Positions 10,522 to 50,526 of a DNA stretch of 64,000 nt are shown here, piece after piece. The notes below the pieces were generated by a model, which was given only the letters and a program-made list of their open reading frames with translations, was not told the origin of the DNA and did not search any database. The number at the start of each line of letters is the position of its first letter. Position 1 is the first letter of the stretch. The DNA comes from Candidatus Latescibacterota bacterium (GTDB lineage Bacteria; Latescibacterota; UBA2968; GCA-2709665): positions 1-64,000 of the forward strand of contig CAXXXF010000005.1 of the NCBI GenBank assembly GCA_963667175.2, read 5' to 3'. The position numbers and the translations under genes were made by a program.

Positions 10522-10896
10522 ATGGGAGCGACGCACGTAACAGTCAGGATCACCAACCCCGCGGATCGGGACCGGTTCTGGGAGGGCCTCTTTCTTGTCG
10601 ACACCGGGGCCACAGACTCCCTGGCGCCCAGGCAGCACCTGGAGGCCATCGGCCTCGAGCCTGAGGGGAAGCGCAAGTATGAACTGGCCGATGGGAGCGA
10701 GATCACGGTCGACGTCGCCCTTGCCAAGATCGAGTTCATGGGAGAGTTCGTCGGCGGGACGGTCATCTTCGGCGAGGCTGACGCGGAGCCGTTGCTGGGC
10801 CTGACAGCGTTGGAGTCCGTCGGCATCGAAGTAGATCCGGTGAATCAACAGTTAAAGAGGCTGCCCGCCGTGCGGCTCAAGGGGCTTGCGGGATGA
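10522..10896 (+). CDS. Small clan AA (retropepsin-like) aspartic protease
   Basis: FLVDTGATDS catalytic motif, YELADGS flap, PLLGLTALES. Strong RBS AAGGAGG. Confidence 0.85.
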   Translation: MGATHVTVRITNPADRDRFWEGLFLVDTGATDSLAPRQHLEAIGLEPEGKRKYELADGSEITVDVALAKIEFMGEFVGGTVIFGEADAEPLLGLTALESVGIEVDPVNQQLKRLPAVRLKGLAG

Positions 10897-30033: not shown

Positions 30034-30062
30034 TTGCCATGCAGACCCATGTAAGGTATATT
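30034..30062 (+). promoter_or_regulatory. sigma70-type promoter upstream of the TGA-containing barrel gene
   Basis: TTGCCA (30034-30039), 17 nt, TATATT (30057-30062). Confidence 0.5.
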
Positions 30063-30124
30063 TCAACCCGTAAAACCCGGACGCCAGCCTCCCGTTCAAG
30101 AACCAGAGATCGAGGAAACCCGGT

Positions 30125-31090
30125 ATGCGTTTGTACTCAGCGTTCTGTCTGTTCATCATCACGCAAGGCATCACGGCCCCGGCCGCCAACGCACAAGGCG
30201 GCGTCAGCTGACGCCGCCCCGTGCTTCCGGGCGGAAGCCTGATGCAGAACAGCCTGGGCGTACAGGACCACCTGAAGCTCAGCGTTCACTACGACTACGA
30301 GTTCCTGTCCGACCCCCACTACGGGTCTCGCGCGATCCCGAACGTCAATCGCGAACGAACCGATAATGCCACGACCACCATCTTTGCCTCGTACGGTGTC
30401 ACCGGACGCATCGGTCTCGCGCTCGCCGTCCCTTTTCGTTCCGTGACCAACGAAAAGGTGCTGCTGCGCGGCCAGAACCGCAATCAGTATGAAGGGGGGA
30501 AGTATGTCCGGCATGCTTCCGGGCTGGGCGATATTGTGGTCATGTTAAATTACGCCGCCCCTCAAATCGCGGGCTTTCCCGGTATGAACGTCGGCGTTGG
30601 ATTGAAGCTGGCAAACGGATCCGTCAATGCAATAGACCAATACGGCGAACGTTTCTCCGACAATCTTCAGATCGGATCGGGAAGCGTGGATCCGATTCTC
30701 GCGTTCAGTGTGTATCATGGACTCGAGGACCTCACGGTCTCCGGGAGCGTCTTCACCCGCATCACCACACGGCAGAACATTTACGGCTACAAATACGGAA
30801 ACGAACTGCACGCAAGCCTGTCTCTGGAATACGCCGGCGGCGGCCGGTTCTTCGGCGGTTTGAGTCTGAAGAATCTGGTCACGTCAAGGGACCGATACCA
30901 GTTCGGCAAGATTACAAGGGAACGCGGCGGGAGGTGGACGTATCTTTCGCCGGAACTGGGGATCCATGTCCTGGACAATCTGAGCGTTGAATTTCACTTG
31001 CCCATCGTCTTATTTCAAAACGTGAACGAAAGCCAGTTGACGTCCGACTATCTGATTGAACTGAGCACGTCCTATGTCTTCTCGCTCTAG
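30125..31090 (+). CDS. Outer-membrane beta-barrel 'transporter' (MetA-pathway/phenol-degradation-like) with in-frame TGA, putative selenoprotein
   Basis: ATG 30125 (RBS GAGG) encodes signal peptide MRLYSAFCLFIITQGITAPAANA, then QGGVS-TGA(30209-30211)-RRP in frame with ORF 30221..31090. Barrel motifs SGLGD, GLKLANG, LQIGSGSVD, YKYGNE, YLSPELG, NVNESQL. Confidence 0.7.
30223..30238 (+). promoter_or_regulatory. Candidate bacterial SECIS element
   Basis: GCUUCC-GGGC-GGAAGC perfect 6-bp stem; the G-starting 4-nt loop begins 18 nt after the UGA. Confidence 0.55.
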
Positions 31091-32342
31091 TGTCCCGTCC
31101 CAAAAACACCTCAGCATTCGGCCGCCGATTCATTCCGTCTCGCAGCGTTGCCTTCGCTCGCCGACCCCGCCCGGGTCGCCTGCACTCAGGCGCCTTGCGA
31201 GCCTGGGGACTCGTCGGCCGAATTCAGGCAACCTATCTCCGGGACGGAACGCCTGGCGATCCGGCGTTCGCCTCATCGGAAAAACAAGCGGCCGGTTCGT
31301 CTTCTTTGCCCTGTCCATGTTTGTTCTTGTATCGGGTTGTTCGCTCTATTTCGACGACGAAGAGCCGGAGCAGTTTTACGAAATCGAAGATTTCGAGATC
31401 CTGAAACTCGGCGTGAATATTTCTGATATGGTCATGGACCCGATCCAGCCGTATCTGTACCTTGCCGACTACGGAAACAACCGGATACTGCGCATTCACA
31501 CCGGCAGGCAGATGGTGGTGGAAGGGAGCCTTCAGGTAGGTTCGCACCCCATCGACATCGACGTCACTCCGGACCAGCGCCGTCTGGTGGTGGGACTGAA
31601 CGGCGAATCGAACCTGAAAATAATCGACCTGAATGCGTTCGCCATCCTGAAGACCGTTCCGTTTTCGCTGAATGACATATCCCACGTCGTCTGCGGGACC
31701 GATTCGATTGTCTACGTGTCCTCGCTGGATGAACCGCTGCTGATTGCGGTATCCATTGCAGACAATCTGGAAACCAGCGGGAACGTGCGTTCGGGCGCAC
31801 TGCTGATGAACCACCGCGACCGTAAGCTTTTCGTTGCCGCCAGGAACAATGTCCTGAAATACGACGCCTCAGGGCATTTCCCAACGACAGAGACCACCTC
31901 AACCCGCTTCAGTTTCTCCGCCAGGATCAACGATTTCGTCATGGGACCTTCCAACGACCATCTCTTTCTTGGGCTGGCGGACCCGGACGATCGCGGCAAC
32001 GTCAAGGATCTGTGGGTATTCAGCGCCCGCGATCTGACGCTGACGGGCAAATACGAAATCAAGTCTCCCGCTCTGGGGCTTGCGTTGAGCCGCGACGGCC
32101 GACGTCTGTTCGTCGCGCCCACAGACGCCGATGAAGCAGGTGTGTTTATCGTTGAATTCAATACGCAGACAAAACTGGAGACGAACTATCTTCTCGCGGC
32201 CGGAAATCTCAAAGAACGCGGCATCGTCATCGATAACGACGATCGGAATCTTTACGTCGCGGTCTATACGCCCGGCGACGACGATACGTTCGAGCCCTAC
32301 AATGTCGACTCGTTCGATCTTCAGCGAATCAGAATCGACTGA
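31074..32342 (+). CDS. YncE-like beta-propeller lipoprotein (true start probably ~31270-31317)
   Basis: Lipobox-like KTSGRFVFFALSMFVLVSGC; propeller repeats YLYLADYGNNRILRI, VGSHPIDIDVTPDQRRLVV, GLALSRDGRRLFVA, GIVIDNDDRNLYVA. Confidence 0.7.
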   Translation: MSSRSSVPSQKHLSIRPPIHSVSQRCLRSPTPPGSPALRRLASLGTRRPNSGNLSPGRNAWRSGVRLIGKTSGRFVFFALSMFVLVSGCSLYFDDEEPEQFYEIEDFEILKLGVNISDMVMDPIQPYLYLADYGNNRILRIHTGRQMVVEGSLQVGSHPIDIDVTPDQRRLVVGLNGESNLKIIDLNAFAILKTVPFSLNDISHVVCGTDSIVYVSSLDEPLLIAVSIADNLETSGNVRSGALLMNHRDRKLFVAARNNVLKYDASGHFPTTETTSTRFSFSARINDFVMGPSNDHLFLGLADPDDRGNVKDLWVFSARDLTLTGKYEIKSPALGLALSRDGRRLFVAPTDADEAGVFIVEFNTQTKLETNYLLAAGNLKERGIVIDNDDRNLYVAVYTPGDDDTFEPYNVDSFDLQRIRID

Positions 32343-50296: not shown

Positions 50297-50526
50297 CCTC
50301 TGTTTTTGAGGCGCGGCATGGCGCCGCCACCGCGGAACAGACTGACAGCTTGTTGAACGTAAACGGGCGCCAGAACTGAAATCCACGTGATCCTGACTCG
50401 AAGACTCAATACAAATCATTGCAAAACCTATACTTAGTTAAATCACAAAGTTCTTGACAGGTGTGCCGGGGTACGTATATTTATTCATTCGATATCCCGG
50501 AATCTTTCGGCCGAGGGTGGCGTCCC

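Follow-up and report, generated by a model that had tools for sequence, protein, structure and literature searches.

A probable selenocysteine-containing outer-membrane barrel encoded across an in-frame UGA codon in Candidatus Latescibacterota

Outer-membrane channels of the COG4313/PF13557 type, which include Pput2725 (PDB 4RL8), TcpY, and SphA, are 12-stranded β-barrels. According to the accessible part of its description, Pput2725 folds its first ~14 residues into the lumen, which is thereby nearly closed (PMC4493636). The amyloid-secretion barrel FapF (PDB 5O65) is also 12-stranded. An outer-membrane barrel bearing selenocysteine (Sec) has precedent, because the GSU2204 family of MtrB/PioB-type barrels (NF041027) is listed in a 2026 table of prokaryotic selenoproteins; the accessible part of that table names no other outer-membrane barrel (PMC13188914). 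Here, we describe a gene for a barrel of the COG4313/PF13557 type that is interrupted by one in-frame TGA codon and probably encodes a selenoprotein. The gene occupies positions 30125..31090 of a 64,000-nucleotide stretch of contig CAXXXF010000005.1 (assembly GCA_963667175.2, Candidatus Latescibacterota bacterium), which is further referred to as the window.

Under translation table 11, the barrel gene is called as an open reading frame (ORF) at 30221..31090, which begins with MLPGGSLMQN and has no hydrophobic leader. An earlier sequence-only reading of the window had claimed that this ORF lacks a signal peptide and that an upstream ATG at 30125, preceded by a ribosome-binding site and a promoter, encodes one ending in A-N-A, with a TGA following as codon 29. 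Both claims were borne out. Namely, MRLYSAFCLFIITQGITAPAANA is encoded from ATG 30125 and is followed, in one frame, by QGGVS, TGA 30209-30211, and RRPVLPGG. The sequence past the TGA, RRPVLPGGSLMQ..., leads into the barrel and ends at 31090. Residues 31-51 of the read-through product, RPVLPGGSLMQNSLGVQDHLK, are encoded 3' of the UGA and reach N-terminal of Met-40, which corresponds to the first ATG after the UGA. The mature barrel of the read-through product contains no Cys. The promoter scan of this region returned four sites against 1.1 expected. The features of the gene are as follows.

30034..30062, plus strand: candidate sigma-70-like promoter, TTGCCA-17-TATATT, 10/12 matches
30112..30116, plus strand: Shine-Dalgarno-like GAGGA, 8 nt 5' of the ATG, read from the sequence
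30125..31090, plus strand: coding sequence of the putative selenoprotein barrel, 321 residues plus stop, with TGA 30209 taken as Sec
30125..30193, plus strand: predicted signal peptide (given above) with an AxA/Q cleavage site (…AANA/QGGVS), judged by eye
30209..30211, plus strand: in-frame TGA, proposed Sec, codon 29 and residue 6 of the mature protein
30212..30235, plus strand: peptide RRPVLPGG, directly 3' of the TGA and ahead of any usable start codon
30223..30238, plus strand: hairpin GCUUCC-GGGC-GGAAGC resembling a selenocysteine insertion sequence (SECIS), arms 30223-30228 and 30233-30238, loop 30229-30232

The TGA is conserved among relatives. A six-frame search of 41 related genomes produced matches in 17 of them. 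Exactly one TGA was present in 33 of the 34 match rows, and the 34th row was a C-terminal fragment outside the site. The motif AQ[GP]GVS-TGA-RRPVLPGG was found in all 30 homologous loci read, which represent two paralog groups with 50-94% identity. The same TGA in the same motif at 30 of 30 loci is far beyond chance, and codon 29 is not peculiar to one assembly. An ATG lies 28-30 codons 5' of the TGA in each of these loci; residue 2 or 3 is basic, and a hydrophobic core and A-x-A-Q (G-S-Q in one locus) follow. The leader residues differ among the 30 homologs, and the signal-peptide-like pattern, as judged by eye, is constant. Two copies per genome occur throughout the genus, an ortholog of the window gene (79-94% identity) and a paralog (52-56%). 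The paralog of the window genome itself (G000:C12:204955-205917; L085 6944-7918, minus strand) shares 54% identity with the window gene.

The TGA form was detected in 18 of 168 genomes of the phylum. It is not confined to the genus: a relative from another family of the phylum, G048 (E 9.5e-30), reads AWAVA-TGA-RRPTLPGE, and a TGA is likewise present in L058. Also, the TGA was retained in five of five metagenome contigs, all of which are near-copies of known loci; one pattern used in that metagenome scan had Cys codons at the Sec position. The DNA pattern G-V-S-TGA-R-R-P-x-L-P was run on 185,579 species genomes and recovered 39 loci, comprising 31 full-length barrel homologs, one N-terminal relic, and seven chance matches. 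The records matched by the pattern are titled Candidatus Latescibacterota, some of them labelled Gemmatimonadota. Four full-length homologs were located in one second phylum (two KSB1 and Calditrichaceae among them), where the Sec form occurs in 4 of 167 genomes. A relic third copy (L068/L089; G021:C30:43691-43780) consists of a signal peptide and GGVS-TGA-RRPLLPGE, after which unrelated sequence stops within ~60 codons; it is situated 9 kb away from the full copy in the same genome.

Codon-position analysis of 33 aligned sequences revealed purifying selection on both sides of the stop. The eight codons 3' of the TGA contain 2, 1, and 8 variable columns at codon positions 1, 2, and 3, respectively, and the corresponding numbers for the seven codons 5' of the TGA are 3, 2, and 7. 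The peptide following the TGA is RRPVLPGG in 29 sequences, RRPALPGG in three, and RRPSLPGG in one. No indel between the leader and the barrel was found in any aligned homolog. The annotated start codon, GTG 30221, is replaced by GTA in eight homologs and by a non-Val codon in several others; it is unusable as a start in those homologs because the codon there is GTA or another non-start. Translation of the frame across the UGA is strongly supported by these comparisons.

In bacteria, a SECIS element is a stem-loop just 3' of the UGA with a G in its apical loop. The hairpin claimed for this locus is present as described: a perfect 6-bp stem whose loop GGGC begins at the 18th base after the TGA. 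In the alignment of 33 sequences, 93.9% of cells in the helix formed by columns 36-42 and 45-51 are paired; control helices slid along the alignment reach only 23-68%. The covariation test proposed for the hairpin was positive. The helix covariation was 0.198 versus 0.098 in shuffles, and none of 500 shuffles scored as high (a 27-sequence version was also run). Pair 39/48 joins a Leu wobble base (CTT/CTC) to a Gly wobble base (GGA/GGG) and is C-G in 25 sequences, U-A in seven, U-G in one, and C-A in none. Twenty of the 33 sequences have a G-C, A-U, U-A, or G-U outer pair, and the paralog group has mismatches there. The two terminal bases of the loop tend to pair as well (GC 27, AU 2, UA 1, GU 2, other 1). 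In G048, the hairpin CGCUUC-CGGGC-GAAGCG retains 6 bp, and its GGG stands at an equal distance despite the altered peptide. Selection on the UGA and on the hairpin is strongly supported. The minimum-energy alternative hairpin (27-32 with 42-47) displayed no covariation and is not supported.

The region just 5' of the hairpin contains a further inverted repeat.

30197..30218, plus strand: perfect 22-nt palindrome GGCGGCGTCAGCTGACGCCGCC, centred on AGCT just 5' of the TGA, with the TGA in its 3' arm

Across homologs, only 78% of the cells of this palindrome are paired and a both-side change occurs once, and a conserved lower helix is therefore not supported. The palindrome is probably peculiar to this clade, where it could sequester the UGA.

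All four genes of the Sec machinery that the sequence-only reading had named for a search (selA, selB, selC, and selD) are present in the genome. SelA was identified with E 2.7e-142 and is adjoined on contig C6 by SelB and tRNA-Sec (73.4 bits). Two genes of the same genome serve as internal controls. The SelD gene (G000:C13:163286-164209) and the gene for FdhA, a formate-dehydrogenase-like molybdopterin enzyme (G000:C16:77337-78608), are each broken by one TGA, and both products are predicted to be selenoproteins themselves. In the SelD element, the UGA is followed by 10 nt, a 7-bp stem, and a loop GGUC from +18; the FdhA element has a 6-bp stem and a loop GGUCU at +19. The barrel element resembles them in its G+C-rich stem of 6-7 bp and in a loop that begins with GG 18-19 nt after the UGA. 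It differs in the loop sequence, GGGC (NGGN across homologs) versus GGUC or GGUCU. SelA was found in 17 of 18 genomes of the phylum with a TGA barrel, the exception being an 80%-complete assembly, and in five of five further carriers.

Cys is the usual counterpart of Sec. The sequence-only reading referred to related 'transporter' barrels with N-terminal Cys motifs, and such motifs were indeed seen at the same place in distant relatives. A profile search of 1.84 billion representatives returned 987 matches at E <= 0.001, the closest of which begin at query residues 41-55, as expected of genes cut at a TGA. The query and the best-listed 150 of the 987 matches were aligned to the profile, and 46 sequences, the query included, cover the Sec column. 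This column contains C in 17 sequences (the U of the query being written as C), G in 11, A in seven, S in four, P in two, W in two, and others in three. Nearly all non-C rows carry QxCC(S/T)xGxP, SCSCGGP, or SCGxxxCP within 3 residues. An N-terminal Cys motif (CC, CxC, or CxxxxC) after the signal peptide so appears to typify the family, and Sec appears to replace it. In relatives from the same phylum at the class level, the signal peptide is followed by SCGTxxCPLD (SCGxxxCPLD), and the proteins have long loops rich in His and Asp; the weak phylum matches L064 and L065, which had been read in a wrong frame, were left out. The gene of one Cys-type relative (L088 6098-8782 in G098; SCGTSSCPLD and a His/Asp-rich loop) adjoins genes for a di-haem cytochrome c peroxidase/MauG-like protein and a 'Receptor L domain' protein.

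The barrel itself is of a known kind. The read-through product matched PF13557 with E 9.5e-6 and 26.3 bits (cut-off 22), and the G048 relative did so with E 2e-9. The AF2 model of the barrel has 12 strands (pLDDT 72, pTM 0.73). In the Foldseek search, FapF was the top match (E 1.4e-11), with the COG4313 channel Pput2725 close behind; VIA alignments yielded Z 22.8 and rmsd 3.1 over 253 residues for 4rl8 (model 39-319 on chain 2-268) and Z 21.4 for FapF. The copper channel PcoB was also among the structural matches, with Z 13.3. Like Pput2725, this protein has a segment ahead of strand 1, which is the part that fills the lumen in Pput2725. Identity to 4rl8 is ~11%, and the protein described here has ~15 extra N-terminal residues, which include the proposed Sec. 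No mention of cysteine was found in the accessible part of the Pput2725 paper (PMC4493636). The barrel also differs from the COG4313 channels in its partners, which are a redoxin and a propeller lipoprotein and not catabolic genes. The match to FapF is confined to the barrel, and there are no fap genes near the barrel gene of the window. We know of no N-terminal Sec or Cys motif in FapF. The GSU2204 family is an unrelated barrel family carrying a CXXCH haem motif. The barrel matched no NCBIfam family (release 20) at E <= 0.01, and NF041027 is thus unmatched. The expectation that standard annotation would miss the family therefore held: the gene is cut to a barrel without a signal peptide and finds no NCBIfam match.

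The sequence-only reading had paired the barrel with a downstream YncE-like lipoprotein. The gene is present, and an inserted repeat separates it from the barrel gene.

31074..32342, plus strand: β-propeller lipoprotein gene, lipobox LVSG-C with the Cys codon at 31338-31340, second Cys at 31692-31694
31090..31255, no strand assigned: palindromic ~160-nt repeat between the barrel and lipoprotein genes, fold energy -78.6 kcal/mol

The AF2 model of the lipoprotein (pLDDT 80) is a seven-bladed propeller. Foldseek related it to the YVTN propeller 1l0q (E 1.3e-13) and to YncE (3vgz, TM 0.76-0.79), and all of its Pfam propeller matches were under their cut-offs. The propeller gene follows the barrel at 15 of 15 orthologous loci and at four of four loci of the second phylum. 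A lipobox of the form [LFV][VA][SAL]G-C was identified in all 15 lipoprotein orthologs. Also, one Cys outside the lipobox (…V/A-C-G/A…; 31692-31694 in the window) is kept in six of six propellers of both phyla (L128-L131 and L081 besides the window). This conserved Cys is a candidate partner of the barrel Sec.

The gene order varies in an informative way. Paralog-type loci contain genes for an NHL propeller, a TlpA-like redoxin (WATWCKTC), the Sec barrel, and a SAM methyltransferase, in this order, and the redoxin is immediately upstream in every such locus examined. In the second phylum, where the barrel gene is single-copy, a redoxin (WCxxC) lies upstream and a propeller of the window type (52-56% identity) lies downstream in all four loci. 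Because of this single-copy order, a module of redoxin, barrel, and propeller is likely to be ancestral, and a duplication seems to have divided it in the genus. In G048, the barrel gene is followed by a cytochrome c gene and then by two redoxin genes. The second of these redoxin genes (L086 9836-10510) was considered as a Sec candidate and rejected; its in-frame stop after LLD is not TGA, and the gene is broken or mis-sequenced. The redoxin of the module shares the Redoxin/AhpC-TSA fold, the N-terminal anchor, and the WATWCxxC motif with TlpA/ResA-type oxidoreductases. In contrast to TlpA/ResA proteins with dedicated clients, the client proposed here is the barrel selenol or the Cys of the lipoprotein, and gene order is the only link.

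Taken together, these data suggest one exported protein composed of a signal peptide, a short segment QGGVS-U-RRPVLPGG with Sec as the sixth residue, and a 12-stranded barrel of the COG4313/PF13557 type. SelB acting on the hairpin 30223-30238 would insert Sec at UGA 30209. We put the probability that this is a real selenoprotein barrel at roughly 0.85-0.9. By homology with Pput2725, the Sec-bearing N-terminus would lie in or at the periplasmic mouth of the channel, where a single selenol may take the place of the Cys pair (CC, CxC, or CxxxxC) of the distant relatives. In the operon of the second phylum, a TlpA-like periplasmic thiol:disulfide oxidoreductase is encoded beside the barrel, and the selenol could be its client and be kept reduced by it. 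The selenol might then cycle between the free form and a selenenylsulfide, pairing with a substrate or with the propeller lipoprotein through its single conserved Cys. The channel plug would thus be a redox-reactive or thiophilic site. A redox-maintained selenol is favoured because of the TlpA-like redoxin in the ancestral operon; the relay as a whole is proposed tentatively, at somewhat less than even odds. A broader version, which we consider doubtful, is a three-gene envelope module consisting of a TlpA-like reductase, a barrel with Sec on its lumen plug, and a one-Cys propeller, which would carry thiol/selenol chemistry to the outer membrane. The selenol would be catalytic or gating, and would reduce or capture an external oxidant, a chalcogen species, or a soft metal in transit. 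If this module exists as outlined, it would contain the first selenoenzyme-like site within a small-molecule channel.

A number of observations weigh against the selenoprotein interpretation or parts of it. The AF2 model has a pLDDT of only ~53 at residues 20-40, and only from residue 39 onward does it align with 4rl8. SelA occurs in 131 of 168 genomes of the phylum, and its co-occurrence with the barrel therefore discriminates little. The peptide LPGG(S/R), encoded as CUN CCN GGN GGN AGN, is self-complementary by nature, and protein constraints could account for some of the hairpin conservation. Even so, Ser/Arg is encoded by AGN alone and the wobble bases are matched, both of which argue for selection at the RNA level. 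The hairpin had no match in Rfam, and a permissive scan of 30150-30320 returned chance matches only (E >= 0.011). The profile alignment jitters by 1-3 residues at the Sec column. No close ortholog with Cys in place of Sec was found among the relatives; the forms with Cys matched at E 1e-10 to 1e-25 and are distant. W occupies the position in two library proteins, P0010 and P0079 (GVS-W-RRP). Three relatives have P, E, or A/K ahead of RRP, and hence not all members of the wider family share the residue. The idea that homologs would show either TGA or Cys at codon 29 was borne out for TGA (30 of 30 loci), whereas Cys was seen at or near this place in distant relatives only, and the W of the two library proteins would speak against it. 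We suspect that the gene caller applied code 4 to short contigs and so translated a TGA as W. Finally, the barrel gene of the window has no adjacent redoxin gene, and the repeat parts it from the lipoprotein gene.

The alternatives to Sec insertion differ in how they treat the UGA. If it were read through without Sec, near-cognate or suppressor decoding would place Trp, Cys, or Arg there, and the hairpin would merely slow the ribosome. The W in the two library proteins agrees with such decoding, which is nevertheless quite improbable. The distance and the G-first four-base loop of the hairpin match those of the SelD and FdhA elements, the genome has the full Sec machinery, and distant relatives have Cys at this place. 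Moreover, the TGA is kept by every homolog in two phyla although Cys or Trp is a single base change away, which argues that the stop codon itself is needed. Were the TGA a true stop, 30125-30211 would form a short ORF with a leader or regulatory role, and translation of the barrel would begin at GTG 30221 or ATG 30242 (Met-40). This agrees with table-11 gene calling and with the many library entries that begin at about residues 40-55 of the read-through protein. It is very improbable in light of a barrel left without a signal peptide, a 'leader' that is always signal-peptide-like with an AxA-Q site, a GTG 30221 that is not a start in many homologs, the variation of the eight post-TGA codons, which is essentially limited to third positions, and the lack of any frame-breaking indel. 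A nonsense pseudogene or an assembly error has the in-frame stop in its favour and nothing further. The same TGA is present in more than 30 independent genomes, in metagenome contigs, and in contigs from DNA runs, and selection is purifying on either side of it. Such an explanation is hardly credible, because the TGA is conserved in homologs of two phyla and in metagenome contigs.

A different question is what the selenol does, if Sec is indeed inserted. It could coordinate a soft metal (Cu(I), Hg, Cd, or Ni) that the channel takes up or excludes, in which case the TlpA-like protein would only keep the selenol reduced for binding. TlpA is known to keep copper-site proteins reduced. Cys-type relatives in the class combine SCGxxxCPLD with His/Asp-rich loops, and PcoB is among the structural matches, though its score is low and far below those of the COG4313 channel and FapF. 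According to the accessible part of the 2026 review, many predicted Sec sites are metal ligands (PMC13188914). Against this, the Sec subfamily has no His-rich loop or second thiol in the mature barrel, and the conserved operon includes no metal transporter, metal chaperone, or metal-dependent enzyme. We regard a soft-metal role as possible and rather unlikely.

We rate this finding as a new selenoprotein family built on a known kind of channel; the recoding itself is not of a new kind. The accessible part of the family table of the 2026 review contains no entry for PF13557 or COG4313 (PMC13188914). A full-text literature search yielded no description of this selenoprotein family; the supplements of large selenoproteome surveys, which it did not cover, could list it. 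The family is invisible as a selenoprotein because standard annotation truncates the gene to a leaderless barrel, and gene callers systematically overlook exported selenoproteins with Sec just past the signal peptide. To our knowledge, the selenoproteins described from bacteria are, with few exceptions, soluble redox enzymes. The Sec proposed here would be located N-terminally in an outer-membrane channel whose chain contains no partner Cys, and a periplasmic reductase and a lipoprotein are conserved beside the barrel in two phyla. If confirmed, the cell envelope would gain a selenoprotein family and a testable case of an outer membrane receiving reducing power. The CC, CxC, and CxxxxC motifs at the N-termini of PF13557 'transporter' proteins, which form a large family, would also acquire a first functional handle.

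The sequence-only reading had compared the hairpin geometry with that of another TGA gene in the window. No such gene was identified. Window scans for TGA-interrupted ORFs, Cys/Sec motifs, and SECIS-like hairpins after in-frame TGA codons left the barrel alone as standing out. Seven TGA-gene candidates proved, by Pfam, to be adjacent genes rather than read-through genes, and a TGA candidate at 10847 was examined and rejected. TGA 50455, a UxxC candidate, lies inside a promoter-like AT-rich stretch and is overlapped by a near-consensus TTGACA-17-TATATT at 50449-50480. At gathering thresholds, the Rfam scan of the window detected three tRNAs only. Other genes of the window encode tRNA-His, tRNA-Arg, a phosphodiesterase, a multihaem cytochrome, EndoIII, an HD protein, and an M23 peptidase, and show no conserved link to the barrel.

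The repeat at 31090-31255 gave 34 blastn matches in the genome, ~17 of them at >=150 nt, on both strands, and contig depth climbs sharply over it. As judged by ORF length, an insertion is present at this site in 8 of 15 orthologous loci, and the lipoprotein frame is open in each. The region corresponding to the start of the lipoprotein orthologs (M-x-R-I-G-K-K...) contains no ATG, GTG, or TTG in the window genome. Only two start candidates are available, namely ATG 31074, which overlaps the barrel end and crosses the repeat, and ATG 31317, seven residues before the lipobox Cys.

Contigs from two DNA runs span the TGA region; one of these contigs (X1, record 1) extends over 30055-30471 and departs from the window sequence only at 30072. 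A contig from an RNA library (X19, record 15) corresponds to 30093-30492 and crosses the TGA. The RNA-library contigs derive from relatives ~95% alike, the libraries may hold DNA, and parts left uncovered carry no meaning. In two studies, the 5' ends of these contigs are located at 30087 and 30093, ~25-30 nt past the -10 box, and the DNA contigs extend further upstream. This is a weak hint at transcription and at the position of the 5' end. The stretch is present in runs labelled sponge, coral, and marine metagenomes.

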